32,000 bases of DNA from Caldimicrobium thiodismutans. Lineage in GTDB: Bacteria; Desulfobacterota; Thermodesulfobacteria; Thermodesulfobacteriales; Thermodesulfobacteriaceae. The notes beneath the pieces are model-generated. The model did no database searches, was not told the origin of the DNA, and saw nothing but the letters and a program-made list of their open reading frames with translations. This document shows, piece by piece, positions 3,925 to 21,307 of this stretch. The stretch's first letter is position 1; every line of letters begins with the position of its first letter. The translations under genes were made by a program, and so were the position numbers. The DNA is taken from contig NZ_AP014945.1 in assembly GCF_001548275.1 (NCBI RefSeq), forward strand, positions 630,001-662,000, in the 5' to 3' direction.

Positions 3925-5440
3925 ATCCTGTCATTATTTGATTTATCTTTTCAATTAAATCAATAAGGATTTTTACTTGAGAGGACTGTAACTCAAGCAG
4001 TTCTCTAATCTTCTGAGAGGATGTATAATTATTATGGGCATCATCAGCCATAAATTTAGAAGTATCTCTGGTTTGCTCTATTTGTTCAGCTATAGATCTT
4101 ATGGCAATACTCTGCTCCTCAACTGCTGAGGCAATTGTTGTAGCAACATCATTAATTTTGTTAATTATTTCACTAATTTCATCTGTTTCTTTAACCGCCC
4201 TTTGGGTTTCCCTTTGAATCCTTTCTACTTTTTCTGTAACCTCAAGAGTTGCCTCAGAGACTTTTTTAGCAAGGTCCTTTACCTCATTTGCAACAACTGC
4301 AAAGCCTTTGCCGGCCTCACCTGCACGGGCTGCTTCAATGCTGGCATTCAGGGCAAGGAATTTGGTCTGTTCAGCAATACTTGAAATAAGATCTATAACC
4401 GCTGATATCTCTTGCGATATACTATTTAGCTCATGCATGGCCTCTTTGGTTGAGATGGCCTTTGTGACAGCTTCTTTTGAAATTTGGGAGGCAAGATAGG
4501 TATTTTGACTTATTTCTTCAATAGCTCTTGTTATTTCATGGGTTGAAGTTGCGCTATCCTCTATGGTCATATTAATGAGACCTGCCTGTTCAAGTAAATG
4601 TTGAGACCTTTGAGCAGAATCTTCTGTTGCTTGAAATACCTCATTCTGAAATTTACTAAATTCCTGTGTGAAATTCTGGACCCCTTTTACTTCCTCCCGT
4701 AATGTTCCAAGGATATTTCTTAAATTTTCTTTTACTCTATTTAAACCATTATGAATTTTACCGAATTCATCTGTCCTATTTGAGGTTATCTGGAAAGTTA
4801 AATCTCCTTCAGCCATTTTTTCTGAAAAGGTTTCCACATCTAAAAGGTTTTCTTTAAGGGTTTTTTCAAGGGATCTAATAGTTAAAAATAGAAAAAAGGC
4901 AATAGGGATTAAAAAGGTAAGATATATTACTTGGGAAATCCTTTTAGTTTTTTGAAATTCCCTTTTTTCAAATTCTAATTTTTCATCATAGAACTTAACA
5001 AGAGTTTCTAACCCATCCCAGAGGAAGGCCTTGGAATATTTTTGAAATTCGGCATAATGAGAAAGAGCTTCATCTATATTTTTTGCATCCTTCATCTTTA
5101 TAACAATGGCATTCATTTTTTCTCCAAGGGTTATAACATTCTGGAGATTGGAAGTATCATTTTTTATTTCCCTAAGTTGGGCAAGGCTTTTATCAATAGA
5201 AAGTGAACTTAAATCTTCATTTAATAAGGAACTGAGAAAATTTACCTTCCATCTTAAGTGTTCAGCTCGTACTTTTTCAGCTCTACGAAGATTATCCTCA
5301 TAAAGGGTGATTTTTTTCTCAAGTTTATAGAGGAGATATTCCTGAAGAAGATAAAAGATCCCTCCTATAGCCATAATAGAGAAAACTATACCGAGTATAG
5401 CTAAACTAATCTTCCTTGCGAAGGTAAAATTTTTAAACAT
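3914..5440 (-). CDS. methyl-accepting chemotaxis protein
   Basis: 508 aa. N-terminal TM helix, helical sensor region, second TM ([18 protein letters not shown]) and a HAMP-like segment. The highly conserved signalling hairpin is present ([35 protein letters not shown]). The 3' end overlaps the thrC 3' end by 11 nt. Confidence 0.9.
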
Positions 5441-5478
5441 CCTATAGCCCCCTCCTTCTGCAATTTTTCTTCAAGAAA

Positions 5479-5506
5479 ATATTATATAAATATCTTTAAA
5501 AGTCAA
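5479..5506 (-). promoter_or_regulatory. candidate sigma-70 promoter for the MCP gene
   Basis: On the minus strand, TTGACT (plus coordinates 5501-5506) is followed by TATAAT (5481-5486, 14-nt spacer) or TAATAT (5479-5484, 16-nt spacer). It lies about 40 nt upstream of the ATG at 5440, with GGAGGGGG as RBS. Sequence inspection only. Confidence 0.35.
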
Positions 5507-5719
5507 TACCAATGTATGCATCTATACCTTTTGAGACTCTATAGGATTTTTTCTTGGGGCGCAACACAAATTAAATCTCTCCACATGCCATTCCCCTCTG
5601 GAAAGAAAGGATAAAAAATCTACAAAATCTTTCCTTAAGCGCTATATTGTATGGGTTTAATATTGAATAAGTTCAGATCCTTACAAAAAGGAAGGATGGA
5701 AGGGGAGGTGAATAGTTAA

Positions 5720-5761
5720 GAAGTAAGAAGTGAGAAGTGAGAGGTAAGAGGTAAGAGGTAG
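5720..5761. repeat. tandem heptamer array, 6 x GARGTRR
   Basis: Head-to-tail units: GAAGTAA GAAGTGA GAAGTGA GAGGTAA GAGGTAA GAGGTAG. One more out-of-phase GAGGTGA copy sits at 5705-5711. The array lies within a purine-rich tract starting around 5688 (AAGGAAGGATGGAAGGGGAGG). Confidence 0.85.
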
Positions 5762-5799
5762 AAATTTAGGTCCCAAAAGATTTGGATACATACATGCCC

Positions 5800-5827
5800 T
5801 TGCAAAAAAGAGAAAATTGGTTATTAT
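5800..5827 (+). promoter_or_regulatory. candidate sigma-70 promoter for tRNA-Leu (and possibly the downstream operon)
   Basis: TTGCAA (5800-5805), a 16-nt spacer, then TATTAT (5822-5827). The -10 element ends about 10 nt before the mature tRNA 5' end at 5838. Confidence 0.45.
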
Positions 5828-5837
5828 TTTTTAAGTA

Positions 5838-5923
5838 GCCCGGGTGGCGGAATAGGTAGACGCTGTGGACTTAAAATCCACTGGAGGACCGCCTCCGTGC
5901 CGGTTCGAGTCCGGCCCCGGGCA
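5838..5923 (+). tRNA. tRNA-Leu (anticodon UAA)
   Basis: Cloverleaf folded by hand. Acceptor stem GCCCGGG/CCCGGGC; anticodon stem GTGGA/TCCAC with loop CTTAAAA (anticodon TAA). Long variable arm GGAGG-ACCG-CCTCC; T arm GCCGG-TTCGAGT-CCGGC; discriminator A. CCA is not encoded. Confidence 0.93.
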
Positions 5924-5948
5924 TTTCTCCCTATATGAGAGGTCTGTT

Positions 5949-6200
5949 ATGCCAATTTATGAATTCAGATGTCAGGAATGCGGGGATGAATTTGAAGTTC
6001 TTTTAAAAAGTAAAGAAGAAATAACCACCGTGTGTTGTAAGGCCTGTGGGTCAAAAAAAGTAGAGAGGCTTTTAAGTGTTGTGAATTCTCTTTTAAGTGG
6101 GGGTAATCCCAAGGGTTCTTCAGGAACTCCTGCTGTGGAATCCCACTCTTGCCCCACAGGAACCTGCACACACCTCCATTTACCAGGCCATCAAAAATAA
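5949..6200 (+). CDS. FmdB-family zinc-ribbon protein
   Basis: MPIYEFRCQECGDEFEV...CCKACGS is the CxxC...CxxC N-terminus typical of the FmdB/CxxC_CxxC_SSSS family. The track ORF (from 5865) runs through the tRNA, so it is trimmed to the ATG at 5949, which is preceded by GAGAGG. Confidence 0.8.
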   Translation: MPIYEFRCQECGDEFEVLLKSKEEITTVCCKACGSKKVERLLSVVNSLLSGGNPKGSSGTPAVESHSCPTGTCTHLHLPGHQK

Positions 6201-7016
6201 ATGCTCAACCTTTTAGTATCCATTAAACAGGTTCCAGACACAACTAATATTAGAATCAATCCTGAGACAGGAACCCTTATCCGTGAGGGGGTTCCCTCAA
6301 TCATTAATCCCTATGACCTTATTGCCTTAAGCACAGCTTGCAAATTAAAACAAAAATATGGGGGTAAAATAGTTGTTATTACAATGGGACCGCCTCAGGC
6401 AAGATTAGCTCTAAAAGAGGCTGTTGAATTTGGAGCAGATCGCATTATTTTGCTTTCTGACCGGAAATTTGCAGGGGCAGATACCTTAGCTACAAGTTAT
6501 ACCTTAGCTGAAACTATCAAGTTTTTAGAGAAAGAGACCCCCTTTGATTTATATCTGTTTGGAAAGCAGGCTATTGACGGAGATACTGCTCAAGTTGGTC
6601 CAGGGGTAGCTACTCGCTTAGGAATTCCAGTTGTGACCTATGTCAATAAAATTGAATCCATAGATTTAAAGGAAAAGACTATAATTTTACATCGGAAGAC
6701 CGAGAGGGGCATTGAGATTCTCAGAGCAAAGCTTCCAATTTTAATTACCTGTGAGAAGGAGCTCTCACATGTGCCCTTTGTTCCCTTTTCAGAGATATTA
6801 AAGGGTATTCAGAGTGAGCCTGAGGTCTTTACTGCAGAGGGCCCTGTTTTCTTTGAACGGGATAAACTTGGCTTAAAGGGCTCTCCTACTCAAGTTAAAA
6901 AGGTCTTTACCCCTGAACTAAAAAAACAAGGTAGCTTATATGACCTGAAAGAGCATTCTCTTAATGATGTGATAGGAAAAATTTTAGAAATCTTGCGGGC
7001 CAAAGGGTTACTATGA
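6201..7016 (+). CDS. fixA: electron transfer flavoprotein beta subunit (FixA/EtfB)
   Basis: 271 aa. Motifs VSIKQVPDT, NPYDLIAL and GKQAIDGDTAQVGP. The ATG immediately follows the fmdB-like stop. Confidence 0.92.
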   Translation: MLNLLVSIKQVPDTTNIRINPETGTLIREGVPSIINPYDLIALSTACKLKQKYGGKIVVITMGPPQARLALKEAVEFGADRIILLSDRKFAGADTLATSYTLAETIKFLEKETPFDLYLFGKQAIDGDTAQVGPGVATRLGIPVVTYVNKIESIDLKEKTIILHRKTERGIEILRAKLPILITCEKELSHVPFVPFSEILKGIQSEPEVFTAEGPVFFERDKLGLKGSPTQVKKVFTPELKKQGSLYDLKEHSLNDVIGKILEILRAKGLL

Positions 7017-8002
7017 AAGAGGTCTGGGTCTTTATTGAGCAGGAAGAAAATAAAATTCATCCTGTTTCCTTTGAGCTTCTTGGAATTGCAAACACTTTAG
7101 CTGAAGACTTATCAGGAAGGATTGCTGGGGTAATTCTTGGAAGTGAGGTTGATAATTTAGCTCCAGAGGTTTTAGCCTATGGGGCTCATAAGGTTTATCT
7201 TGTTGAACATGATTGTTTAAAATATTATAGACACAGGCCCTATGCAAAGGCCTTAAGTGATCTTGCAAAGAAGTATCATCCTGAAATTCTCCTCCTTGGA
7301 GCAACTCCTTTGGGTAGAGATCTTGCTGGAGGGGTGGCTACTCTTCTTGAAACTGGCTTAACAGCTGATGTTACCGAGCTTTCTATAGAAAAGGAAACTG
7401 GCTATCTCCTTATGACCCGTCCAGCCTATGGTGGAAATATTATGGCAACCATTGTTTGTCCTCATCACCGACCCCAAATGGCAACGGTTCGCCCAAGAAT
7501 TTTTTCAGTTCCAGAGAGAAAAGAAAATCCCAAGGGTGAGATCATAAAGGAAAAAATTGATCTCTCAGAAGATCTGGCAGGTATTGAGAGGTTAAATTTT
7601 ATTCCCAAGGAAAAGACTGTTAATCTTGAATATGCGGATGTTGTAGTGGCAGGGGGAAAGGGAATCGGAGGGAAAAGGGAATTTGAAAAATTAAAAGAGC
7701 TTGCAGAACTCCTTTCAGCTGAGCTGGGAGCCTCTCGTTTAGCTGTTGAGTCTGGTTGGATCTCTTATGAGCATCAGGTTGGTCAAACAGGAAAAACAGT
7801 AAGACCAAAGGTATATTTGGCCTTTGGCATCTCTGGTGCTATTCAACATAGAGCAGGTATGCAAAACTCTGACTTTATCATAGCTGTAAATACGGATAAA
7901 GGGGCTCCTATTTTTAAGATTGCAGATATGGGAATCCTTGGAGATTGGAAAGTTGTAGCAGAGGCCCTTATTTCAGCCCTAAAAAAGGAAAAGGATAAGT
8001 AA
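7013..8002 (+). CDS. fixB: electron transfer flavoprotein alpha subunit (FixB/EtfA)
   Basis: 329 aa. C-terminal FAD domain motifs VVAGGKGIG, ELGASRLAVESGW, QVGQTGKTVRPKVYLAFGISGAIQH and IIAVNTDKGAPIF. 4-nt overlap with fixA. Confidence 0.92.
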   Translation: MKEVWVFIEQEENKIHPVSFELLGIANTLAEDLSGRIAGVILGSEVDNLAPEVLAYGAHKVYLVEHDCLKYYRHRPYAKALSDLAKKYHPEILLLGATPLGRDLAGGVATLLETGLTADVTELSIEKETGYLLMTRPAYGGNIMATIVCPHHRPQMATVRPRIFSVPERKENPKGEIIKEKIDLSEDLAGIERLNFIPKEKTVNLEYADVVVAGGKGIGGKREFEKLKELAELLSAELGASRLAVESGWISYEHQVGQTGKTVRPKVYLAFGISGAIQHRAGMQNSDFIIAVNTDKGAPIFKIADMGILGDWKVVAEALISALKKEKDK

Positions 8003-9319
8003 ATGAGTGATTTCTCCTTTGATGTGGTTATCGTTGGAGGAGGCCCAGCAGGGCTTGCCTGCGGAATCCACTTAGCTAAAAAGGGGGTTAAAGTTCTTCT
8101 TATAGAGAGGGGTAGATTTTGTGGCGGGAAAAATCTCTTTGGCGGGGTTATTTATTCAGAATCTTTAAAAGAGATCGTTCCCGAATTTCCAAAGGTTGAT
8201 CCCTTTCCTGCTGAAAGGCCTGTTACTGAAGAAGGCTATTTTATCGTATCTAAAGAGGGTGTGGTTAAAATTTTACATACTAAGAAAACCCCGGAGGAAT
8301 CCTTTACTGCGCTCAGGGCTAAATTTGATAATTGGCTCTCTGAATATGCCTTGAAAAAAGGAGTTTTTATTGCTCCAAAAACAAAAGTTGTTGACTTTCT
8401 CTGGAAGGGATCTCAGATAACAGGGGTTGTTCTTGATAGACCCAAAAGTTTTCAGGATGATAGACCTACAGAGATCTCTGCAAAACTTGTCATTCTTGCA
8501 GAGGGGGTTAACAGAGTTCTCACTGAGAAGGCCGGGCTTGTATATGGTCCTTTTAAGCCCGAAGAGGTTGTCCTTGCAGTTAAAGAGGTGCTGCAGCTTC
8601 CTAAGGGGGCTATGGAGGTAAGGCTTGGGGTCTCAGAAAATAAGGGTCTTGCGGTAGAAATAATTGGAGAAATAACCTCTGGTCTACCTGGAACAGGCTT
8701 TCTTTATACGAATAAAACAACTCTTTCCTTTGGTGTTGGAATTTTTCTAAAGACCCTGGTAGATTTAAATCTCAAACCCTACGAACTCCATGAGAAGGCA
8801 AAGGAACACTCCATTTTTAAAGAGTTATTTCAAGGAGCTGAGACCTTGGAATACGGGGCACACCTCATCCCTGAATGGGGAATAAAGGGGCTTCCTAAGT
8901 TGTATGGAAATGGAGTGCTTGTAATAGGAGATTCTGCTGGACTTGTAAATCCTCTTTTTAGAGAGGGCACAAACCTTGCCATTTATTCGGGTTTAATGGC
9001 AGCGGATACCGCTTTTTCAGCCCTTGAAAAAGGAGATTTTTCAGCTAAAACCTTAAAGACCTATGAAGATAGATTTAAAGAAAGCTATATTTATAAAGAC
9101 CTTATTTTACTTAAAGATTTAAAGGAATTCCTTTTTAGGAATAGTCACTTTTTTTCTATATATCCAGATATGCTTTACCAGAGCCTTAGTCTTTATTTTT
9201 CTGCTCAAGGGAGATATAAAAGAGATGTAATACGCGAGATCTTTGGTATAATCCGAAAAAAGAGAGGTCTTTTTGGGGTTTTAAAGGATTTCTTAAATAT
9301 AGGGAGGCTCTTTTGGTAG
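8003..9319 (+). CDS. fixC: FAD-dependent oxidoreductase FixC (ETF-quinone oxidoreductase-like)
   Basis: 438 aa. N-terminal dinucleotide fold FDVVIVGGGPAGLACG, then LLIERGRFCGGKNLFGGVIY, which parallels E. coli FixC as I remember it. The position after fixAB is canonical. Confidence 0.9.
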   Translation: MSDFSFDVVIVGGGPAGLACGIHLAKKGVKVLLIERGRFCGGKNLFGGVIYSESLKEIVPEFPKVDPFPAERPVTEEGYFIVSKEGVVKILHTKKTPEESFTALRAKFDNWLSEYALKKGVFIAPKTKVVDFLWKGSQITGVVLDRPKSFQDDRPTEISAKLVILAEGVNRVLTEKAGLVYGPFKPEEVVLAVKEVLQLPKGAMEVRLGVSENKGLAVEIIGEITSGLPGTGFLYTNKTTLSFGVGIFLKTLVDLNLKPYELHEKAKEHSIFKELFQGAETLEYGAHLIPEWGIKGLPKLYGNGVLVIGDSAGLVNPLFREGTNLAIYSGLMAADTAFSALEKGDFSAKTLKTYEDRFKESYIYKDLILLKDLKEFLFRNSHFFSIYPDMLYQSLSLYFSAQGRYKRDVIREIFGIIRKKRGLFGVLKDFLNIGRLFW

Positions 9320-9603
9320 GTTCAGTAAATATTGATGAAAAGATCTCAAGTGTAAAGTTTTTTGTGGATGAAGAATATCCTCATCTGCGTATTAAAGATG
9401 AAAAAGTATGTTTAAAGTGCAATGAAAAGCCCTGTCTTAACTTTTGTCCTGCAGGAGTTTATAGGTTAACTGAGGAAGGATCAATTCTTATTAGTTATCA
9501 GGCCTGTTTAGAGTGCGGATCTTGTAGAATTGGATGTCCCTTTGAAAATATTATCTGGAGCTACCCAAGAGGTGGCTTTGGTGTAAACTATAAATTTGGA
9601 TAA
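9313..9603 (+). CDS. fixX: ferredoxin-like protein FixX
   Basis: 96 aa. CPAGVY, ACLECGSCRIGCP and the C-terminal YPRGGFGVNYKFG closely parallel FixX. TTG start lies 6 nt after GGGAGG and overlaps the fixC stop. Confidence 0.9.
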   Translation: MVGSVNIDEKISSVKFFVDEEYPHLRIKDEKVCLKCNEKPCLNFCPAGVYRLTEEGSILISYQACLECGSCRIGCPFENIIWSYPRGGFGVNYKFG

Positions 9604-9613
9604 GGGGTAAGGT

Positions 9614-11722
9614 ATGTCACAAAAAATTCCTTATCAAATAATATTTTATATCTTTTTTTTAGTGGTGCTTTTTTTTGGGGTTTACATTCGCTTTGATGAT
9701 ACCCGTATCTGGGAACAAAATTCAGCTTTTTTCTTCTACAAAGGTGAGCCCCTTTATTCGGAATATGATTCCTTCTACTTTGCAAGGTATGCCCTGGATA
9801 TGAAGGAGGGCCTTTTTAAAAGTGGAGAGATTGATAACTTCCGTTTTTATCCTGATAATTCTTCTCAAGCTAAGCTTAATGATAAGGAATCTTTTGCAGC
9901 AAAATATTCCTATTCGGGGCACTTAATAAGTTACATTTTTTATCTTCTTTCTGAGATTACGGGTAAAAGCGTAGCCTGGCTTACTTACTGGTTGATCCCC
10001 TTTATGGCAGTAACAGTAGCTATACCTTTATTTTTTTATTTCAATACCTTAGGGCTTCCCTGGGCAGGGCTTTTGGGAGGACTGATAGCCCTCTCAGCCC
10101 CGATGTATCTCGGAAGAACAGGTCTTATGCGCCTTGATCACGATGTCTTTAATCTAACTCTACCATTTTTGATAGCCTTCTTCTTTTATCAATTTTTTCA
10201 GAGTAGGTCCCTTAGGGGAAAGACCATCTGGATAGCTCTTTCCAGTGTTACATTAATTTTTTATCAGCTCTGGTATGCCCATTCCAATCTTAATTTTGTA
10301 TTAATTTTGTCCTTTCTTTTTGCTTATTTCTGGGATTACTTAAAGGGCCTTATTTTTAAAAGGGAGGTAAAGAAGCCTTTTTCAAGGCAGGATATTTTAT
10401 TTTTGGGGATCCTCCTTATTCCTCAACTCTGGTATATCTGGGCAGGTCCTTATTATCTCTATTTACAGGTGAAGACCCTGGTTTTTAATTTGAAGAACCC
10501 TACCTCAGCGGATATTCTCTTTAAAGACTTTCCTAATATCTTTATGTCTATTTCTGAGCTCCAGAAGATGAATTTCTGGGAAGTTCTGGCCGCAGTTATA
10601 TTTAATAAGTTTTTGGGTGTGCTGGGTTTAGTGGGAGCCTTTGTGCTCTTTGTTTTTCATTTTAGAAGTCTTATTTTTCTTTTTCCTTTTTTTGTCATAG
10701 GCCTTCTTTCCTTTATTTCTGGAGCAAGGTTTGCCATGTATCTTGCCCCTTTTATTGGTCTTGGCCTTGGGTATTTAGTGCACTTTCTCTTTGAAAAGGC
10801 CTTACCTTATCTTGATATTTATAAAGAGGAATTCAAGCAGAGGCTTGTTACCACCTCAGTTGGGATTTTAATCTTTATTTCAGCTCTTATTGCCCAGAGA
10901 GAGGCCCTTGGGTTACTCAGCACTCCCAAGATATTTTCTCCTTTAGTAAGGGATATGGAGTGGATAAGGATTAATACTCCAAAGAATGCGATAGTCTTTA
11001 GCTGGTGGGATTATGGATACGCCTATCAGCTTTATGCCCGTAGAGCAGTTTTTCATGATGGAGGCTCTCAGGGAAGTCCTAAAACTTATCTTATTGCCAG
11101 AGCACTTTCAACCTCTGATCCCCGTGAGGGCTGGTTGTTGACCTCCTTTATTTCTAATTACGGCCTTTCAGGGCTTGCTAAGATTTTAAAGGAGGGGAAG
11201 ACAGCAAAAGAGGTAGTTGAAGAGATTAAAAAGGGCAAATATACTAAATCAATTAAAGATCCCATTTATTGGGTCTTTACCGATGATCTCATTTCCAAAT
11301 TTGGCTGGATTTATTATTTTGGAAGTTATGATTTTGATAAAAGGGAAGGTATTTTTGGTAAAATCATCGCCCCTACCTGTAAAATTATAGCCTCAAATCT
11401 TATTCAATGCCCTGAATTACAGGATGCAATTATTGATCTTAATAACGGGATAATATCTGTTAAAAATGCTTCGGTTCCTTTGAAAAATTTTTATTATTAT
11501 GATGGAAAAACTTTAACTGAAAAGAAATTTTTTGAACAGGGTTATACGATTGAGATTGTAAAAACTGCTTCTAATCAAACCGGTCTTTTTCTTGTTGAGC
11601 CTCCTGCAGATAACTCGCTCTTTAATCAAATGTTTCTTTTAAGAAAATATGATCCTAAATATTTTGAATTAGTTTATGATGATTTTCCTCATGCAGTTAT
11701 ATATCGTGTTAAACCTGAATAG
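9614..11722 (+). CDS. oligosaccharyltransferase, PglB/AglB/STT3 family
   Basis: 702 aa. Polytopic N-terminal membrane domain plus a soluble C-terminal domain. Ordered signatures: EYDSFYFAR (res 50-58), RT-x5-DHD (168-177), SISE (312-315) and WWDYGY (464-469; nt 11003-11020). Confidence 0.85.
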   Translation: MSQKIPYQIIFYIFFLVVLFFGVYIRFDDTRIWEQNSAFFFYKGEPLYSEYDSFYFARYALDMKEGLFKSGEIDNFRFYPDNSSQAKLNDKESFAAKYSYSGHLISYIFYLLSEITGKSVAWLTYWLIPFMAVTVAIPLFFYFNTLGLPWAGLLGGLIALSAPMYLGRTGLMRLDHDVFNLTLPFLIAFFFYQFFQSRSLRGKTIWIALSSVTLIFYQLWYAHSNLNFVLILSFLFAYFWDYLKGLIFKREVKKPFSRQDILFLGILLIPQLWYIWAGPYYLYLQVKTLVFNLKNPTSADILFKDFPNIFMSISELQKMNFWEVLAAVIFNKFLGVLGLVGAFVLFVFHFRSLIFLFPFFVIGLLSFISGARFAMYLAPFIGLGLGYLVHFLFEKALPYLDIYKEEFKQRLVTTSVGILIFISALIAQREALGLLSTPKIFSPLVRDMEWIRINTPKNAIVFSWWDYGYAYQLYARRAVFHDGGSQGSPKTYLIARALSTSDPREGWLLTSFISNYGLSGLAKILKEGKTAKEVVEEIKKGKYTKSIKDPIYWVFTDDLISKFGWIYYFGSYDFDKREGIFGKIIAPTCKIIASNLIQCPELQDAIIDLNNGIISVKNASVPLKNFYYYDGKTLTEKKFFEQGYTIEIVKTASNQTGLFLVEPPADNSLFNQMFLLRKYDPKYFELVYDDFPHAVIYRVKPE

Positions 11723-11733
11723 AGGAGGGAAAG

Positions 11734-12069
11734 ATGATTCTCAATCTTAAAGATCTTCAAATGGAAAAACATCCCAAATTTAAAGGTGTAAAGATTGGTT
11801 TTTTGGTGACCAAGGAAAAACATCCTGAGCTAAGTATCACAGTTCTTGAAATTGATCCCGGTATAGAAATTCCAATTCATCAACATGAAAAGGAGGTTGA
11901 TAGTATCTTTCTTTTAGAGGGTGAGGGAGAGGTTTATCTTGAAGATAAGTGGCAAAAGATTAAATCCGGTGATGTAATTGTTGTATCCCCTGGTATAAGG
12001 CATGGTGTAAAAAATACAGGTTCAACTAAGATGAGATGTTACATTGTTCATGCTCCAGCCCTCTGGTAG
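11734..12069 (+). CDS. cupin domain protein
   Basis: 111 aa. Cupin_2-like metal motifs IHQHEKEVDSIFLLEGEGEV and GDVIVVSPGIRHGVKNTG. GAGGAGGG RBS; starts 11 nt after the OST stop. Confidence 0.8.
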   Translation: MILNLKDLQMEKHPKFKGVKIGFLVTKEKHPELSITVLEIDPGIEIPIHQHEKEVDSIFLLEGEGEVYLEDKWQKIKSGDVIVVSPGIRHGVKNTGSTKMRCYIVHAPALW

Positions 12070-12111
12070 AATTTAATCTTTCTTAAACGAGGCAAAAGAG
12101 GTGATAAGAGT

Positions 12112-13020
12112 ATGGAAATTCATGATAAGGCAAGAATTTTAATCTCAGCTCTTCCCTATTTTAGGGATTTTTATGGCAAGATTCTGGTGATTAAATATGG
12201 TGGACATGCCATGGTGGCTGAAGATCTAAAACAGGCCTTTGCTCAGGATATAGTGCTAATGAAATATGTAGGTATAAAGCCTATTATTGTTCACGGAGGT
12301 GGGCCTCAAATTACGCAGGTCATGGAAAAAATGGGGTTAAAGCCAACTTTTATTGAGGGGCAGAGGGTAACTGATGAGGAGACCATGAATGTTGTTGAAA
12401 TGGTCTTAGTTGGAACGGTCAATAAAAAGATTGTTAGCCTTATAAATCAAGCAGGCGGGCTTGCTGTTGGACTTTCAGGAAGAGACGGGAATCTTGTTGA
12501 GGTTGAAAAAATGACCCTTTATAAATACACTGGTGAGGATAGACCTCCTGAAATCATTGATATAGGAAGGGTAGGGAAGGTAAGGCAAGTAAATCCTGCG
12601 GTGCTTTTTACATTAATTGAAAGGGGATTTATTCCAGTAATAGCTCCGGTGGGAGTGGGACCTGAGGGTGATGCTTACAATGTTAATGCAGATCTTGTGG
12701 CAGGGGCTATTGCTTCAGCCATAAAGGCAGAAAAACTTATTTACCTCTCAGATGTAGAAGGTGTTAAAGATGAAAAGGGAAAACTTATTTCAACTCTATT
12801 TATTCATGATATTGAAGATCTCTTAGAAAGGGGCATTGCTAAGGGAGGTATGATTCCAAAACTTAAGAGTGCTCGCAAGGCAATAACCACAGGGGTAAAA
12901 AAGGTCCATATTATAGATGGAAGAGTTCCCCATAGTCTTCTTATTGAACTATTTACAGATGAGGGCTTAGGTACTCAAATCCTTTCTGCGGAGGAACCAG
13001 ATGGAGGAGATCCTTCTTGA
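12112..13020 (+). CDS. argB: acetylglutamate kinase
   Basis: 302 aa. Motifs VIKYGGHAM, IIVHGGGPQI, GQRVTDEETM and NVNADLVAGAIA are classic ArgB amino-acid kinase signatures. Confidence 0.93.
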   Translation: MEIHDKARILISALPYFRDFYGKILVIKYGGHAMVAEDLKQAFAQDIVLMKYVGIKPIIVHGGGPQITQVMEKMGLKPTFIEGQRVTDEETMNVVEMVLVGTVNKKIVSLINQAGGLAVGLSGRDGNLVEVEKMTLYKYTGEDRPPEIIDIGRVGKVRQVNPAVLFTLIERGFIPVIAPVGVGPEGDAYNVNADLVAGAIASAIKAEKLIYLSDVEGVKDEKGKLISTLFIHDIEDLLERGIAKGGMIPKLKSARKAITTGVKKVHIIDGRVPHSLLIELFTDEGLGTQILSAEEPDGGDPS

Positions 13021-15655
13021 AAAAAGTTATGATCCAAAAAAGGTAGAGGACAAATGGTATAAGATCTGGGAAGAAAAGAGGCTCTTTGAACCCACCTATG
13101 ACCCGAAAAAACCCAAATTTTCAATGGTTATCCCTCCTCCCAATGTGACTGGCTCTCTTCATATTGGGCATGCTCTAAATAACACCATTCAGGATCTCTT
13201 GGCACGATATAAAAGGATGGATGGCTTTGATGTGCTCTGGGTGCCTGGCACAGATCATGCTGGAATTGCAACCCAAAATGTAGTTGAGAGAGAACTAAGT
13301 AAAGAGGGGCTAAGTAGAGCTGATCTTGGGAGAGAGAGGTTTTTGCAAAAGGTTTGGGAATGGAAAGAACGCTTTGGAAATCGCATTATTGAACAGCTCA
13401 AAAAACTTGGAGCAAGCTGTAGCTGGAGTTATCAAAGGTTTACTATGGACGAAGGCCTTTCAAGGGCTGTAAGAGAGGTGTTTTGTAAACTCTGGGAAGA
13501 GGGACTTATTTATCAAGGAGATTATATCATAAACTGGTGCCCAAGATGCTACACTGCCTTAGCTGATCTGGAGGTGGAATTTGAGCCCACAGCAGGAAAA
13601 CTTTGGTATCTGAAATATCCCCTTGAGGATAGCTCTGGTTATATAGTTGTTGCAACCACCCGTCCAGAGACCATGCTTGGGGATACAGCAGTTGCTGTGC
13701 ATCCCGAGGATGCAAGATATAGAGCTTTAATAGGTAAAAGGTTAAGGCTACCACTTTTGGGAAGATTAATCCCTATTATTGCTGACAAAGTAGTAGATCC
13801 TGAGTTTGGAACAGGAGCTGTAAAGGTTACTCCAGCACATGATTTTAATGATTTTGAAATGGCTAAAAGGCATGGACTTCCTTCAGTTAAAGTTATTGAC
13901 GAATCAGGAGTTATGACTAAGGAAGCTGGCCCATATGCGGGATTGGATAGATTTACAGCAAGAAAGGAGGTGCTCAAAGATTTACAGGAAGGTGGTTTTC
14001 TATTAAAGGAAGAGGATTATGAAGTTGTTCTTGGGCATTGTTATCGCTGTGGAACAATTATTGAACCTCTTCTATCAAAGCAATGGTTTGTAAAAATGAA
14101 ACCCCTTGCTCAACCTGCTATATCAGCAGTGGACTATGGATTTATAAATTTTTATCCTGATAGCTGGAAAAACCTTTATTTTGATTGGATGAGAAACATT
14201 AGAGACTGGTGTATTTCCCGTCAGATTTGGTGGGGGCATAGGATTCCTGTTTGGTATTGTGAGTCCTGTGGTGAAATAAATGTCTCAAGAGAGGACCCTA
14301 ATAGGTGTTCTGCCTGTGGAGGAGAGAATCTCAGAGCTGAAGAGGATGTCCTTGATACCTGGTTTTCTTCTGCCCTCTGGCCCTTTTCAACCTTAGGATG
14401 GCCTGAAAAAACAGAGACCCTTAAGGCCTTTTATCCCACCTCAGTCCTTGTAACAAGCTTTGATATAATATTTTTTTGGGTTGCTCGCATGATTATGATG
14501 GGAGAGCACTTTATGGGGGCTATTCCCTTTAAAAAGGTTTATATTCATGCCCTGGTAAGAGATGAAAAAGGCCAAAAGATGAGCAAAAGTAAGGGGAATG
14601 TTATTGATCCCTTAGAGATGATAGAGAACTTTGGCTGTGATGCCCTGAGGTTTACTCTTATTGCCCTTGCTGCTCAGGGAAGAGACATTAAGCTTTCTAT
14701 TGATCGTATAGAAGGCTATAAACACTTTATCAATAAGATCTGGAATGCGGGAAGATTTGTTCTCATGAACCTTAAGGATCTTAATAAGGATGATTTTGCT
14801 GAAATTGATTATAAAGATTTACCGCTTTTTTCTCGGTGGATCCTTTCCAAACTGAATGAAACTATTCTTTATGTTAGAGAAAAACTTGAGGAGTTTGAAT
14901 TTGACCAGTCTGCTATGAGACTTTATCACTTTTTCTGGGACAATTTCTGCGATTGGTATCTTGAGATTGCTAAGGTTTACCTCCAAGATAAGAATCTAAA
15001 AAGGGGAACCCAGGTTGTTTTGCATAGGGTATTTTCAGATACCTTGAAACTTTTACATCCCTTTATCCCCTTTATTACAGAAGAACTTTGGAGTTTTTTA
15101 CCCTTCAAGGAAAAGGAAAATCTCCTTAAAGAAAGTTATCCTCGAACCTTTGAAATAGCTTTTAGTCCTGAAGAACGCCATTTAACGGATCATATCTTTG
15201 AAATTATTACAGCTATTAGAAATGTTAAGGCCGAATATAATCTTGCCCCAAATCGGGATATCCCTGTTTTTTATGTTAATACGGGGGATATAATTAATAA
15301 AGTAAGGAATGAAGAAAAGATCATTACTACTCTTTCCAGGGTTGAGGACATTAATTTTGTGGAAAAACACGAGAAACAAAAGGGTGAAGTGGCTTTTATT
15401 TTAACCTCCGGGGAGTTGTTTTTAAATTTAACAAAACATCTTGACTTTAAAAAAGAAAAAAATAAACTTCTTAAAGAAATGGAAAAAATTGAGAAAAAAA
15501 TGAAATTACTTAATGAAAAATTATCAAACCCTCAATTTTTAGAGAAGGCTCCTCAGGAAATTATAGAAAAAGAAAAAAAGACTTTTTATGAGCTTTCTGA
15601 AAGAGCTAAAAAAATTAAAAAACTCCTTGAGGAGATAGAATATGCCTGTAGATAA
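13001..15655 (+). CDS. valS: valine--tRNA ligase
   Basis: 884 aa. HIGH motif PPPNVTGSLHIGHALN, KMSKS motif (GQKMSKSKGNVIDP), an editing domain and a C-terminal K/E-rich coiled coil. The start overlaps the argB 3' end by 20 nt. Confidence 0.97.
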   Translation: MEEILLEKSYDPKKVEDKWYKIWEEKRLFEPTYDPKKPKFSMVIPPPNVTGSLHIGHALNNTIQDLLARYKRMDGFDVLWVPGTDHAGIATQNVVERELSKEGLSRADLGRERFLQKVWEWKERFGNRIIEQLKKLGASCSWSYQRFTMDEGLSRAVREVFCKLWEEGLIYQGDYIINWCPRCYTALADLEVEFEPTAGKLWYLKYPLEDSSGYIVVATTRPETMLGDTAVAVHPEDARYRALIGKRLRLPLLGRLIPIIADKVVDPEFGTGAVKVTPAHDFNDFEMAKRHGLPSVKVIDESGVMTKEAGPYAGLDRFTARKEVLKDLQEGGFLLKEEDYEVVLGHCYRCGTIIEPLLSKQWFVKMKPLAQPAISAVDYGFINFYPDSWKNLYFDWMRNIRDWCISRQIWWGHRIPVWYCESCGEINVSREDPNRCSACGGENLRAEEDVLDTWFSSALWPFSTLGWPEKTETLKAFYPTSVLVTSFDIIFFWVARMIMMGEHFMGAIPFKKVYIHALVRDEKGQKMSKSKGNVIDPLEMIENFGCDALRFTLIALAAQGRDIKLSIDRIEGYKHFINKIWNAGRFVLMNLKDLNKDDFAEIDYKDLPLFSRWILSKLNETILYVREKLEEFEFDQSAMRLYHFFWDNFCDWYLEIAKVYLQDKNLKRGTQVVLHRVFSDTLKLLHPFIPFITEELWSFLPFKEKENLLKESYPRTFEIAFSPEERHLTDHIFEIITAIRNVKAEYNLAPNRDIPVFYVNTGDIINKVRNEEKIITTLSRVEDINFVEKHEKQKGEVAFILTSGELFLNLTKHLDFKKEKNKLLKEMEKIEKKMKLLNEKLSNPQFLEKAPQEIIEKEKKTFYELSERAKKIKKLLEEIEYACR

Positions 15656-15931
15656 AAGATTTTATACCCCTTACCAAGTCTTTTTAGAGGGAACAGCTTC
15701 TCATGAAAAGGGATTTCATTATCCTATCCCATAAAAGAAGGGGATCATCTGAATTTGGTTATAAAGGGTAATAAAACTTTTAAAGTAAAGGGAGTAAAAT
15801 GGATGATAGAAGGAAATAATATGGTAATTGGTTTGAAGTTTGATCCTTTGGACATGGAAACCACCCAAATTTTATCGGCGTTTTTATCATCTTTGGCCCT
15901 TTCTTCTCTTTCTTATACCTATCTTAGATAA
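15642..15931 (+). pseudogene. degenerate PilZ-like gene, interrupted (frame change near the A4 run at 15706-15709)
   Basis: Frame A (15642-15734) reads MPVDKRFYTPYQVFLEGTASHEKGFHYPIP*. Frame B is open from 15707 to 15931: KGISLSYPIKEGDHLNLVIKGNKTFKVKGVKWMIEGNNMVIGLKFDPLDMETTQILSAFLSSLA. The two parts align with the halves of the neighbouring PilZ gene (GDxLxLxIK...KxKxxVxW...G[VL]KF). The DxSxxG motif is degenerate (GISLSY). Confidence 0.4.
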
Positions 15932-16308
15932 ATGGGCCTTGAAAAACGATATTATACAAGACATCATTTAAGGTGTGAGTGTGTAATAGCCTTTGAATCA
16001 GGAATTAAAACACAGGATGAAATTTTAGACATCAGTGCTGAGGGAGCAAGACTCAGAATTGATACAGTTTTTTTATTGATTCTGGGGATATACTTTATTT
16101 AAATATAAAATGTAAATATAAAATAAAGCTTAAAGCGCAGGTTCGCTGGGTGAAGCAAAATAAATTCACAGAATTTGGAGTGAAGTTTATTGAAATGTCC
16201 ATGCAAGAGAGAGAGTCTCTATCTCAGTTAATATCAGAAATGGCTTTTTCTACTCTCTCTCCTAAATTTATTTGGATTAATCCTTTACATTTAGTTTCAC
16301 CAATTTAG
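15932..16308 (+). pseudogene. PilZ domain gene interrupted by a frameshift in a T7 run (16068-16074)
   Basis: 5' part (15932-16102): MGLEKRYYTRHHL...DEILDISAEGARLRIDT, carrying the PilZ RxxxR and DxSxxG motifs. The 3' continuation lies in another frame from about 16072: FFIDSGDILYLNIKCKYKIKLKAQVRWVKQNKFTEFGVKFIEMS...; stop at 16306-16308. Adding one T to the T7 run restores a PilZ protein of about 125 aa. The 3' end would overlap the smc stop. Confidence 0.6.
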
Positions 16309-19300
16309 ATACACCTTTTTCTTCCATAGTTACTCCAACTAAGTGATCAACCTCTTTCATCACATGAATATTATGGGTAATAAGAATAATTTGAGAATTT
16401 TCCTTAATTTTTTTCATTAACCTAATGAATTTAAGTGAATTTTTTTCATCAAGTGGAGCATCTACTTCATCAAGAATACAGAATGGTCCAGGCTTAGTTA
16501 GATAAAAAGCTATAAGAATAGAGATAACGCAAAGGGCTTTTTCTCCTCCTGAGAGCATGTGAAGGTGTTTAATGTTTTTGTAAGGGGATGAAAGTTTTAA
16601 CTCAAGACCTGCCTTTAAAGGGTCCTCTTCTGTTAAATACAGTTCAGCGGTAACTTTTTCCATAATTAAGGGAAAGATTTCTCTGAGCTTTTCATTTACG
16701 CTTTTAAGAGTAGCCAGAAGTTGCTTTTCAGCCCTGACTCTTAATTCTTTGAGTATTTTTTTGAGATGCTCTATGGCATTTTCTAAATCTTTTTTTTGGC
16801 TTAGGAGAGTATCATACCTCTCAGCTATTCTTTCAAATTCTTTTATACTTGTAAGATTTACCTCGGGAAAATTTTTTAATTCCCCTTTCAGTTCCTCAAG
16901 TTTTTTCTCTATTTCTTGAAGATTTAAAGGGTTAACCATATCTTTGAGTAGATCTTCCGGGTTAGCATCCTCACCTATAAGCTCCCTTAATTCTCTTTTT
17001 AGATTCTCAAGATTTAAATTTACTTCAGTTAAATCAAGCTCTAAACTATGTAAATTTTGTAAAAACTTCTCTTTTTCTTTTTCTATAATTTTCTTTTTGT
17101 TAAGTATATCTCTCAAAAAGGAATTTTTTTCCATCAAAAGATTTTCAGAGGAGGCTATTTGTTCTTCAAAAACCTTTAGGGTAGATTTTAATAGCTCTTT
17201 TTTCTTCCTTTCTTCATTGATTTTTTCTCTTAAATAATTGACCTCATTCAACAGAATCTCGTAATTATGTTTAGTGTTTTTTAAAAATCTATCAATTGAT
17301 TCTATTTCACTGATAATTTCATCTTTTCTTTTAAAGAGCTGTTCTTTTTCTGCTTTTATCTTTATAACTTTCTTTTCAGCTTCTGATATCTCACTTTCAA
17401 CACGATTTTTTTCGCCTTCAAAATTTTTTATTTCTTCTAAAAGCTCTTTTATTAATTTAGAGAGTTCGCTCTCATTTTGACTTATTCTATTTATCTTACC
17501 TTCAAGTTCTTTTTTTTCACCTTCAAGATGTTCTTTTCTTTTTAATAGAGTTTGAAGATTTTCTCTAATTCCTTTAAGATTTTCTTCCAGACGAATTCTT
17601 TTTTGTTCAAATTGAGAAAGAGTTATATTTATCTTTTTTATCTCCTCGTCTTTTTCTATTTTTTTCTTTTCTTTATCAAATAATATCTTTTCTATTTTAT
17701 TAAGTTCTTCTTTAATAAATAATTCACTCTCATTTAGTTGTGTTAATTTTTCATCAATTGCCACTAAATTTTTTTCAAAAAGTTCCTTTTCCCTTTTAAG
17801 ACTGAAGTAACCTTTTTTTGTGTCTTTAAGATAAAGGATAAAGCCCTGTGGGGAGATGAGAAGCTTTTTATCTTTAAGAAAAACAAAGTCTTCTGGTATA
17901 GATTCAGAGGTATAATATTTAGATTCCAATTTTTTTAAGCCAAAAGGAATAGAAGATAGAGCGGATTCCTTTACAAAGATGAGATTTCCCTTTTCTTTTT
18001 CAATTATTGAGTTTATTTCTTCTATATCATTAATGATAATAGCTTTCAATAGATCTCCATAATAATTTTCAAGGATAGCAAGGTCTTCAAGTGGATGTTT
18101 GAGATAATTTCCTATGGTTTTTTCTAAAAGTTTAGAATTAAAATTCCTTTCTTCACTATTTAAGATTTGAGAAAGAAGTCTAATTTTTTCTTCTGTAGTC
18201 TTTTTTTCTGAAATTAACTCCCTTTTTTTCTCTTGAACTTCCTTCAACTTTGCTTTGAGTGCATCTGAAGAATTTTTTAGAGAAACTATTTCCCTTTCTA
18301 AGTCCTCTCTTTCTCTGGTTTTTTGGAGGACAATTTTTTCTAAAAGTTCTTTTTCTTCTAAAAGTTTGTTTTGAGAGTCTTCTATCTCTTGTGCCTCCCC
18401 CTCTTTTAGAGCAAGCTCTTTATGTATAAAGCTTAACTCTCTTTCTAAGAAATCTTTTTTTTCTCTAAAGCGAATGCCTTCTTTTTTTATTGCATCATAT
18501 TCTTGATTAAGTTTCTGTTTTTTCTTTTGTTTTTCCGATAATTCTTTTAAAAGTTTATCTCTTTTAGCTTTTAAATCTCTTAGTATTATTTCAAAATTTT
18601 CTGCTTTTTCTTTCTTTGTCTCAAGCTCCTTTTTAATTAGTTCTATTTGTTGCAAAAGTAAGTTTTTTCTCTGAATTTCTGTAGATTCTTTGATCTTTTC
18701 CTGTTCAAGTTTTTGTGTAATTTTACTTTCTTCTTTATAAAATCCACTCAATTTTTCTTCAATCTTTTTGAGTTCTTCTTCTTTTTCAACCTTATCTTTT
18801 TTTAAATCCTTAGATTGTCTCTCCAAGTTTAATATCTCTTTGTAAACTTCTCTTTCTTCATCTTCTATTCTTTCTAAGGACTTCTCTAATGAAATTTTTT
18901 TCAATTTTACTTCATTAATTTTTTCTAAAATATTTCTTTTTTTCTCAAGAGCTTGTTTATAAAGCAAACCTAAATGTATAAGAGAATATTTCTTTAAATC
19001 TTCTTTAAGGGTTAAATATTTTCTGGCAGTTTCAGCCTGCTCTTTCAGATGATAATACTGGCTTTCAACTTCTTTGAGTATGTCTGTTAAGCGTATGAGA
19101 TTTTGTTCTGTTTGAAATATATTTTTTTCTGTTTCCTCTTCAGTGACCTTAAGTTTGGTTATTCCTGCCAAATCTTCAAGAAATCTCTTCCTCTCTTTGG
19201 GGGAGATCTCTAAAAATTTATTTATTTCTCCTTGATCAATGATTCCATAGCTTTGAGGATTAACTCCTAAGTCTAAAAAGAGAAAATGTATGTCCTTGAG

Positions 19301-19723: not shown

Positions 19724-20386
19724 TTATGCCTGTTCTTTCATAAGGAGATATTCCTTGATTTCATGGATTAGCAAAGCAGGGGTTTTCAGAGGATAATGGA
19801 GAGAACTCAGAATTTCTTCAATGGGATTACCTTTAATACTTAACCCGGCTAATCTTTCTTTAAGGTCCTCTTTAGAGAAAATTGGATACTTTATGCCTTT
19901 TGTTCTTTTTAGTATTTGATAGGCCCAGGGGACATCTAAAGCTTTAGCAACTTCAGAGGCAACCAGACTGCAATAATAGAGAAGAGTCTGGGCTTCATGC
20001 CCTTCTTTTATCTCTTTATAAGCTAATTTAGCAATCCCTCCCGCAGTGTGAACCTTAAGATCCTTGGTTTCTTCAGAGGCTAACTCTTCAAGAGATTTAA
20101 TCTTCTGCAGGGCAAGTTCAGGATCTGCCCTTAAAATATTTTTAACTGTATTTTTTGTCAGCCCAATTTTTTGAGCAATCTCCTCATCACTTTTCATGTA
20201 TTCCTCTTTAAGCACCACTGCTGATGCAGCTCTGGCTAAGGATGGAAGCCAGGTAAGAGTTCTAAATTCAGCTAATTTACTCAAGCCCCCCAGCAGTTCT
20301 ATAGCCTTAAAAAAGACCCTGGTAACCATCTGCTCTATTTCCTGTTCATATACTGGTGGTGCTTCAAGTCTGATTACCATTTTCAA
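19724..20386 (-). CDS. HTH-containing putative regulatory protein, partner of the KaiC-like ATPase
   Basis: 220 aa. Strong RBS (AAAGGGGGG, 6 nt before the ATG). Helix-turn-helix-like segment SDEEIAQKIGLTKNTVKNILRAD. Starts 12 nt after the KaiC-like gene. Resembles, from memory, the 'probable regulatory domain found next to KaiC homologs' family of thermophiles and archaea. Confidence 0.7.
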   Translation of the reverse strand: MKMVIRLEAPPVYEQEIEQMVTRVFFKAIELLGGLSKLAEFRTLTWLPSLARAASAVVLKEEYMKSDEEIAQKIGLTKNTVKNILRADPELALQKIKSLEELASEETKDLKVHTAGGIAKLAYKEIKEGHEAQTLLYYCSLVASEVAKALDVPWAYQILKRTKGIKYPIFSKEDLKERLAGLSIKGNPIEEILSSLHYPLKTPALLIHEIKEYLLMKEQA

Positions 20387-20398
20387 CCCCCCTTTTGA

Positions 20399-21307
20399 TT
20401 ATTTTTGTCCTCCCACTGGATCTTTAATAACAACTAAACCTGTTTCAAGTATCTCCAGAAAATGTGTCTTGGTATCGTGACCGCACATTCTACAGCCATC
20501 AATTCTAAAAAGCCTAACGATTTGTCCCATCTCTTTACGATAAAGTTTGGCCTTATATGGGGAATCAATAAGTTCCTTGGCAAGAACCATGGTGCCGTCA
20601 ACAATATGTCCCACAGCATAACCACCAGCAGCTTCAGCGGTAAGCTCTTCATGGCCACTCCTTTTCTGAGATACCAGAAGGGCAGTTTGATAAAATTTTT
20701 TTAAAAAGTTAAAAAGCCTTCGCACAATAGCCCGGGCTAACATCTCTTTGGTTTCAAATAGCCCAGTTACTGAGTCAATAATAGTAAACTTTACCCCAAA
20801 TTGCTGAATGGCATATGATAAAGTAGCCAGCAAATCTGGTAAATTATCTCTTAATCTACTTGAGCTTGCTGCATCAATCAGAATAATATTGTCCTCAAAG
20901 TTATGAAAATTAAGCCCCATAGCCTCTGCTCTTAATTTAAGGGAGATTGCAACAAAATTGGCAGGAGCTTCAACTGTTACAAAGGCTACTTTTTCTCCAA
21001 GGCTGGCCTGTTTTACTGCAAATTGTTCCACCATAAGAGATTTACCAGTATCAGAGATCCCGGTTATATTAAAAACCGAATAAGCTGGAATACCCCCCAG
21101 TGGTTTTTTAACAATATTACCCTTTTCAGAGGTTACTAAGAAAAAGAGCTCATCTAAGCCATTAATACCTGTAGGGACTCCGTAAATCTGAGGAGCTTTG
21201 GCTAAGGCCTGCCCACCTTTAAATATAGCTTTTAAATCGGGTTCACCAAACCCTGAAAGCTTTTCCCTTTCTTCTGAATAATATTCACTTTTACTTATCT
21301 TGTTCAT
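20399..21307 (-). CDS. KaiC-like / RecA-superfamily ATPase (single domain)
   Basis: 302 aa. Motifs VPTGINGLDELF, Walker A GISDTGKS, Walker B-like KFTIIDSV and LLVSQKRSG. Near the C-terminus there is CRMCGHDTKTH. The architecture matches single-domain archaeal/thermophile KaiC homologs. Confidence 0.85.
   Translation of the reverse strand: MNKISKSEYYSEEREKLSGFGEPDLKAIFKGGQALAKAPQIYGVPTGINGLDELFFLVTSEKGNIVKKPLGGIPAYSVFNITGISDTGKSLMVEQFAVKQASLGEKVAFVTVEAPANFVAISLKLRAEAMGLNFHNFEDNIILIDAASSSRLRDNLPDLLATLSYAIQQFGVKFTIIDSVTGLFETKEMLARAIVRRLFNFLKKFYQTALLVSQKRSGHEELTAEAAGGYAVGHIVDGTMVLAKELIDSPYKAKLYRKEMGQIVRLFRIDGCRMCGHDTKTHFLEILETGLVVIKDPVGGQK

Follow-up and report, generated by a model that had tools for sequence, protein, structure and literature searches.

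Oligosaccharyltransferase (OST) homologues from outside Campylobacterota have been on record since about 2010. PglB homologues in Aquificae were noted by Ollis et al. (PMC4894442), homologues in both Aquificae and Deferribacter are already in the literature (PMC4894442, PMC6025236), and for the OST (OTase) of Deferribacter desulfuricans, two papers (PMC6025236, PMC7313396) cite Mills et al. 2016. In Desulfovibrio, DgPglB, DmPglB, and DdPglB have relaxed sequon requirements (PMC12229607, PMC4894442), and single-subunit bacterial OSTs that take plain N-X-S/T are wanted for the production of glycoproteins in Escherichia coli (PMC12229607). Here, we analyzed a window of 32,000 nucleotides, which is the whole stretch between positions 630,001 and 662,000 of the forward strand of contig NZ_AP014945.1 of Caldimicrobium thiodismutans (RefSeq assembly GCF_001548275.1). 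A gene at 9614..11722 on the plus strand of this window, with an ATG start, encodes 702 amino acids plus the stop, and an initial annotation made from the letters alone had assigned its product to the N-OSTs. Our analysis supports the assignment of this protein, hereafter the Caldimicrobium OST, to the STT3/PglB/AglB OST family, which we take to be CAZy family GT66; profile, structure, and conservation agree on this. The Caldimicrobium OST is a sound and well conserved but largely expected find, and it does not overturn the current understanding, because homologues outside Campylobacterota have long been catalogued. Its mosaic of motifs is worth a specialist's note.

In a Pfam scan, the 702-amino-acid protein matched STT3 (PF02516; 49.9 bits, cut-off 24.5) and STT3-PglB_core (PF21436; 40.7 bits, cut-off 23), and no other family at E ≤ 1. 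When all PDB sequences were searched with phmmer, the top match was the PglB of Campylobacter lari (E = 1.2e-11), with a strong alignment over residues 229–702 and two weak stretches in the N-terminal part; STT3A (1e-5) and AglB (1e-3) aligned around WWDYG only. A profile of 45 relatives, with 27–80% identity to the 702-amino-acid query, matched PglB at E = 8e-64 (220 bits) in two stretches spanning nearly the whole chain, STT3A at E = 8e-12, and AglB at E = 1.7e-5 to 7.9e-5, the last again around WWDYG only. The AlphaFold2 model calculated with the same 45-sequence alignment (pLDDT 92.3, pTM 0.89) predicted a glycosyltransferase C (GT-C) fold, in which an N-terminal domain of what appear to be roughly 13 transmembrane helices is followed by a C-terminal globular domain, and this fold is nearest to the solved OSTs. 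In a Foldseek search of the PDB, three PglB structures came first (6GXC, E = 2.6e-28, TM-score 0.75), eukaryotic STT3 reached TM-scores of 0.57–0.59 and Archaeoglobus fulgidus AglB 0.53–0.56, and the top 21 matches were all PglB, STT3, or AglB. The domains and motifs of the Caldimicrobium OST (EL, external loop) and the gene that follows it are located in the window as follows.

9614..10912, plus strand: N-terminal membrane domain, residues 1–433; helix pattern of the model consistent with the PglB fold of 13 transmembrane helices; model superposed on PglB over the full length
9761..9787, plus strand: EL1 motif EYDSFYFAR (E50-Y-D52-SFYFA-R58); D52 aligned to the PglB metal ligand D56
10115..10144, plus strand: EL2 motif RTGLMRLDHD, residues 168–177; R168 aligned to PglB R147, and D175/D177 to the DXD residues D154/D156
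10547..10564, plus strand: EL5 motif S312-I-S-E315-L-Q317, of the SVSE-x-Q type and not TIXE; SISELQ is the commonest form in the family
10547..10558, plus strand: SISE, residues 312–315, within the EL5 motif; E315 aligned to PglB E319
10592..10594, plus strand: A327, aligned with PglB R331 in two independent HMMER alignments; no Arg here
10727..10729, plus strand: R372 of GARFAMY, aligned to the Arg of PglB GLRFTIY
10913..11719, plus strand: C-terminal periplasmic domain, residues 434–702; PglB-like to its last residues (NSLFNQMFLLRKYDPKYFE vs NSAYIQMFLLNQYDQDLFE) in alignments and superposition
11003..11017, plus strand: WWDYG, residues 464–468, aligned to PglB 457–461 (WWDYGY, residues 464–469, at 11003–11020)
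11057..11068, plus strand: D482-G-G-S485, the family version of DGGK (motif definition, PMC8342417)
11285..11311, plus strand: pocket helix D558-L559-I-S-K562-F-G-W-I566 (DDLISKFGWI, residues 557–566, at 11282–11311); PglB M-x-x-I572-x3-V aligned with L559-x-x-K562-x3-I566
11734..12069, plus strand: Cupin_2 protein of 111 amino acids, 11 nt downstream of the OST gene

The five OST motifs of the initial annotation all lie exactly where it had placed them, in residues and in nucleotides, which is far beyond chance, and the residue correspondences it had drawn to C. lari PglB (D56, D154/D156, E319, and WWDYG 457–461) hold in the HMMER alignments. In the 45-sequence alignment, D52, R168, R173, D177, E315, R372, W464, W465, D466, G468, D482, G483, D558, and K562 were invariant, and D175 was at least 90% conserved. 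We also compared 246 full-length sequences, comprising the query, search hits, and cluster members aligned to the family profile. E315, R372, and W465 were kept in all 246, D177 in 245, and D52 in 243; WWDYG was present in 169, and most of the others had WWD-x-G variants. From its alignment, WWDYG 464–468 is predicted to bind the +2 Ser/Thr. The Arg of PglB GLRFTIY that matches R372 is presumably R375, which we take to be a lipid-pyrophosphate contact. We also assume that the E-x-D-x5-R of EL1 corresponds to EFDPWFNYR of yeast STT3; the STT3A alignment stopped short of EL1. The gene had a ratio of nonsynonymous to synonymous substitution rates (dN/dS) of 0.09 relative to the congeneric locus L001 and of 0.15 relative to locus L003, and it is under strong purifying selection. 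In a near-identical metagenome-assembled genome (MAG), the same gene (P0004) is annotated with a later start that gives 640 amino acids. This version would lose the first transmembrane helix and the invariant D52, and therefore the start that gives 702 amino acids is correct.

The modest novelty of the Caldimicrobium OST is its mixed motif set: SISE-x-Q, DGGS, no equivalent of Arg331, and a Lys-type pocket. In EL5, TIXE is the archaeal and bacterial form and SVSE the eukaryotic form (Taguchi et al., PMC8342417), and the Desulfovibrio PglBs with relaxed sequon needs carry SVIE or SIIE with a conserved Gln two residues downstream (DeLisa group, PMC12229607). These Desulfovibrio enzymes accept minimal N-X-T sequons (PMC12229607). 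R331 of PglB reads the acidic residue at position −2 of the sequon (PMC4894442); the equivalent column is variable in the clade of the Caldimicrobium OST, and Arg-Arg occurs only in its most distant members, as in C. jejuni. For the Ser/Thr pocket, Kohda and colleagues defined the DK motif as DxxKxxx[M/I] and the MI motif as MxxIxxx[I/V/W], with MI stated for all PglB (PMC3703281), and our literature search for Desulfovibrio with MXXI returned no papers. The pocket helix is not an exact match to either consensus: it has Lys and Ile at the second and third positions and Leu/Met at the first, and the Asp is shifted one residue upstream (D-x3-K). The remark in the initial annotation that this helix resembles the DK motif is thus half right: K562 is an invariant Lys aligned with PglB I572, but the first position is Leu/Met as in MI, with D558 one residue upstream. 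Of the 246 relatives, 209 (85%) have Lys as the pocket residue, and D[L/M]xxKxxxI occurs in 157. As judged from the alignments, this appears to be a Lys-type Ser/Thr pocket with an MI-like first position and an upstream invariant Asp. Because SISE-x-Q occurs as in the relaxed Desulfovibrio PglBs, no Arg331 equivalent is present, and the pocket is of the Lys type, an acidic −2 residue is probably not required, and the sequon would be the minimal N-X-S/T.

The described OSTs each share part of this combination. Campylobacter PglB (C. lari and C. jejuni; 3RCE, 5OGL, and 6GXC) has the same length class, fold (TM-score 0.75), catalytic residues, and WWDYG, and the same architecture of the periplasmic domain, including the C-terminal QMFLL-x2-YD-x3-FE. 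However, it is only 19–20% identical to the Caldimicrobium OST and has TIME (TIXE), DGGK, Ile572, and Arg331 where the latter has SISE-x-Q, DGGS, Lys, and Ala327. The Desulfovibrio PglBs (DgPglB, DmPglB, and DdPglB) are likewise single-subunit enzymes with S(V/I)xE in EL5 and Gln two residues downstream (PMC12229607, PMC4894442); compared by reported motifs, they have WWDWG, DGGR, and NL (PMC12229607), whereas WWDYG, DGGS, and D-L-x-x-K are found here. DEFDS_0397 of Deferribacter desulfuricans, which we infer to be the OTase of Mills et al. 2016, is 29% identical over its full length (E = 1e-91) and shares D-M-x-x-K, DGGS, WWDYG, and the C-terminal domain, but it belongs to a different phylum, has TITE in EL5, and has no E-x-D in EL1. 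Archaeal AglB (A. fulgidus, 3WAK and 7E9S; Pyrococcus) is likewise a single-subunit enzyme of thermophiles with a Lys-type pocket, and AglB is known to have variants of the DK motif in which residues are inserted between the acidic position and the Lys (PMC3703281). AglB differs in its weaker fold match (TM-score 0.53–0.56) and sequence match and in its other peripheral domains. Eukaryotic STT3 (yeast Stt3, human STT3A/B) shares the pocket Lys and has an SVSE-HQ-like EL5 (SISE-LQ here), but it is only 13–16% identical, has a TM-score of 0.57–0.59, and works in a multi-subunit complex; its DNXT double-sequon motif is absent from the Caldimicrobium OST.

We consider it likely that the Caldimicrobium OST is a single-subunit N-OST of the PglB fold, which would transfer glycans en bloc to the Asn of N-X-S/T in the periplasm, from a donor that is made elsewhere and probably has a 2-acetamido sugar at its reducing end, and without the need for an acid at position −2. 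A pre-assembled glycan would be transferred in the periplasm from undecaprenyl-pyrophosphate to the Asn of N-X-S/T in exported proteins. D52, D175/D177, and E315 would form the metal and carboxamide site, and WWDYG together with K562/I566 would form the +2 Ser/Thr pocket. The glycan would be built and flipped by the products of genes elsewhere in the genome, as in Helicobacter; in Helicobacter pullorum, functional pgl genes are scattered over five loci, and pglB is unlinked to the other pgl genes (PMC6025236). Because the gene follows PglF/PglE/PglC-like genes in distant relatives, the reducing-end sugar would probably be of the 2-acetamido, bacillosamine-like type.

Several observations weigh against this proposal. 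We found no report of N-linked glycosylation in Thermodesulfobacteriota in the searchable literature, and a literature search returned no paper pairing PglB with Thermodesulfobacteri*. A Pfam scan of all open reading frames (ORFs) of ≥ 90 amino acids, except those nested in a longer one, detected no gene for a glycosyltransferase or flippase and no sugar-nucleotide gene in the 32-kb window, in agreement with the initial annotation, and no glycan-assembly gene was detected in the 7–10 kb beyond its 3′ end. The NCBIfam equivalog model of PglB (NF050801) scored 59.2 bits against a cut-off of 1300, and the protein, although a PglB-fold OST, is therefore no strict orthologue of Campylobacter PglB. 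DGGS is present instead of DGGK. Furthermore, the minus-two rule does not depend on R331 alone (PMC4894442), and the EL5 region has the lowest confidence in the model (block means of 67–85 over residues 281–320), so the R331 correspondence is drawn from sequence alignment only.

Alternatively, the enzyme could act mainly as a hydrolase of lipid-linked oligosaccharides (LLOs) that sets oligosaccharides free in the periplasm, where they might serve, for instance, as osmolytes, with protein glycosylation minor or absent. LLO hydrolysis that releases free N-glycans is known for eubacterial and eukaryotic OSTs (PMC8342417), and the catalytic core needed for hydrolysis is intact. However, WWDYG, K562, I566, and the SISE strand of EL5 are conserved like the catalytic residues, and hydrolysis alone would need none of these, which makes this explanation unlikely. 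The pocket is no clean separator of the two roles, because mutations of the Lys and Met of the yeast DK motif suppress hydrolysis and retain transfer (PMC8342417).

An STT3-fold transferase with a non-canonical acceptor, such as another residue, a different sequon, or a non-protein molecule, would fit the unusual mixture of DGGS, D-x3-K, and SISE-x-Q, and no linked pgl genes hint at the pathway, unlike in the Campylobacter pgl locus. We nevertheless regard it as distinctly unlikely, since the residues of the Asn-activating site and of the Ser/Thr pocket of PglB, AglB, and STT3 are all present and invariant. Moreover, all characterised STT3-family enzymes are, to our knowledge, N-OSTs. An OTase from Deferribacter desulfuricans, the species with the homologue DEFDS_0397, is also cited (Mills et al. 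2016, in PMC6025236).

The gene might also be a remnant, decaying or without function, of a glycosylation pathway that was lost, as its solitary position among housekeeping genes and the disrupted PilZ genes nearby in the same window could suggest. This is very unlikely, because the reading frame is uninterrupted, the dN/dS values (0.09 for L001 and 0.15 for L003) indicate purifying selection, the catalytic residues are invariant across several phyla, and the position of the gene is conserved among genera. Finally, membership in another GT-C family (ArnT, PMT, DPY19, or the Emb/Aft arabinosyltransferases) with coincidental OST motifs, which the initial annotation had named for ArnT and PMT as the result that would contradict it, is effectively refuted by profile and fold: the folds are alike, and Foldseek lists AftA, DPY19, ArnT, and Pmt4 (E = 7e-6 to 1.3e-3), but these E-values are at least 20 orders of magnitude weaker than for PglB, the TM-scores are 0.35–0.49 vs 0.75, no Pfam or NCBIfam profile of such a family matched at E ≤ 1, and the C-terminal domain is PglB-specific to its end.

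The gene of the proposed N-OST lies in a tightly packed same-strand run of genes in the order Zn-ribbon, fixA, fixB, fixC, fixX, OST, cupin, argB, and valS. It is likely to be co-transcribed with fixABCX, because a Shine-Dalgarno-like sequence, GGGGTAAGG at 9604–9612 (+), falls in the gap of 10 nt between the FixX stop and the OST ATG and fills most of it. A scan for promoters and terminators over 5300–16400 gave counts at the level of shuffled sequences, with no signal above chance. The fixABCX-type electron-transfer flavoprotein operon (window 6201–9603, plus strand; L011 5195–10023) lies directly beside the OST gene not only in Caldimicrobium but also in Thermosulfurimonas, whose OST is 39% identical and whose fix operon is interrupted by genes for an ATPase and a nucleotidyltransferase. 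The fixABCX–OST order is thus kept into Thermosulfurimonas, and the order OST–cupin–argB–valS–(PilZ)–SMC is kept into Thermodesulfobacterium and L003. The adjacency of fixABCX and the OST gene probably reflects inherited synteny rather than a functional link.

The surrounding genes of the window encode ThrC, a methyl-accepting chemotaxis protein, SMC, a KaiC-like pair, ResB, a CDF transporter, an ABC-2 pair, UvrC, Thi4, a B12-radical SAM enzyme, and an NtrC-type two-component system. Beyond the 3′ end are genes for a histidine kinase, a Mur ligase, a HemN-like protein, LptF/G, and flagellin, and, in one of two contigs, a nucleotidyltransferase/HEPN pair and SapC. The flagellin gene (505–516 amino acids) follows lptF/lptG about 6 kb past the 3′ end of the window (L018 2722–4239; L019 220–1770), and its product is an unlikely target of a periplasmic OST, because flagellin is exported through the flagellar apparatus. 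The cupin gene is kept beside the OST gene in Caldimicrobium, L003, and Thermodesulfobacterium (60–71% identity) and is missing in L005 and in more distant relatives. We considered the cupin as a sugar-modifying partner of the OST and found no support for this role, as it matched no family above the cut-off and the adjacency is limited to close genera. Among the transporters of the window, a role in moving a glycoconjugate is conceivable only for the ABC-2 pair (23651–25242, minus strand); it was rejected as a glycan exporter or flippase, as it is generic and DrrAB/NodIJ-like and scored under every NCBIfam cut-off.

The initial annotation had presented the rarity of such an enzyme and the missing glycan genes as notable. 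This was overstated: homologues are known, relatives are annotated automatically, and an unlinked pglB is usual in the clade. In Thermosulfidibacteraceae, Aquificaceae, other Aquificota, and two further lineages, the OST gene stands alone among unrelated genes; a stand-alone OST gene is the norm in the clade and not an anomaly. Campylobacter pglB lies in the pgl cluster (pglA–K) and the Caldimicrobium gene does not, and a cluster setting was seen only in two distant relatives. One of them (P0078 on L013, 36% identity) is directly behind genes for a GT4 glycosyltransferase, two DegT aminotransferases, a PglC-like Bac_transf protein, and a PglF-like Polysacc_synt_2 protein, and the other (P0111, 29% identity) is behind genes for GT2, Wzy_C, two GT4 proteins, an epimerase, and Bac_transf. 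In Thermodesulfobacterium, GT9 and DegT genes lie 2–4 kb upstream of the OST gene, and DegT, GT9, or Wzx genes occur within 10 kb of it in L009 and L011. The latter, from Thermosulfurimonas, has genes for a Wzx-type flippase, an oxidoreductase–hexapeptide fusion, and DegT 5–10 kb downstream, behind a toxin–antitoxin island. Based on these contexts in P0078, P0111, Thermodesulfobacterium, and Thermosulfurimonas, we infer that the clade is tied to pgl-like, amino-sugar-based glycan assembly where linkage survives. The island itself (L011 12382–17042) consists of toxin–antitoxin and small genes (ParE, MazE/PIN, DUF4258/DUF2283, and others) that separate the OST gene from the glycan cluster, which gives the impression that the two were once linked in Thermosulfurimonas and were parted by an insertion.

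We also surveyed the spread of the clade. An exhaustive phmmer search of 1.84 billion representatives yielded 196 clusters at E ≤ 1e-30, 996 at E ≤ 1e-10, and 2162 at E ≤ 1e-3. The closest proteins (99% identity) came from Caldimicrobium MAGs; relatives at 60–80% identity were labelled Caldimicrobium, including C. thiodismutans, and those at 54–58% Thermodesulfobacterium. Thermosulfurimonas, Thermosulfidibacteraceae, and Aquificaceae were included among relatives at 39–52% identity, and Desulfurobacteriaceae, other Aquificota, and Deferribacter among those at 29–37%. Many relatives are already named “STT3 domain-containing protein” in the databases. The clade is catalogued but barely characterised, and close relatives of the Caldimicrobium OST are already annotated automatically as STT3-domain proteins. 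An active enzyme would extend N-linked protein glycosylation to Thermodesulfobacteriota, and the bacterial textbook set of TIXE, DGGK, MI, and Arg331 would be a feature of Campylobacter and not a general bacterial one. A thermophile OST with a SISE-x-Q loop and no Arg331 would also be a reasonable candidate for glycoengineering. More tentatively, and we regard this as doubtful, minimal-sequon N-glycosylation may be a conserved trait, fixed in the chromosome, of the thermophilic, deep-branching Thermodesulfobacteriota, Aquificota, and Deferribacterota, exerted by a large clade of the PglB fold in which the periphery of the active site resembles that of eukaryotes and archaea (SVSE-x-Q in EL5 and a Lys-type Ser/Thr pocket). 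The MI motif, Arg331, and −2 rule of Campylobacter PglB would then mark it as a derived oddity and not as the archetype of bacteria, and the enzymes of the clade would be naturally thermostable, relaxed single-subunit OSTs for glycoengineering.

Several further features of the window were observed. At 15655–16277, two PilZ-domain genes are disrupted, leaving ORFs of 58, 56, and 52 amino acids. In a MAG contig of 99% identity, L008, each of them encodes 115 amino acids; the breaks arise because the window lacks about 47 bp near 15720, 3 bp near 15793, and one T of a T-run near 16068. The SMC gene is intact in the window (1128 amino acids) and split in L008 (878 + 227 amino acids). The disruptions of PilZ and SMC are either pseudogenes or assembly errors. 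Between 16000 and 19000, the GC content drops to 0.27–0.29 and the AT skew is strongly negative; this is a compositional effect and not an island, because it coincides with the Lys/Glu-rich coiled-coil of the minus-strand SMC gene. At 19724–21307 on the minus strand lies a KaiC-like gene pair that is conserved in thermophiles; one product matched thermo_KaiC_2 (449 bits, cut-off 232), and the other, a regulatory-domain protein, matched ‘near_KaiC_dom’ (122 bits, cut-off 65).

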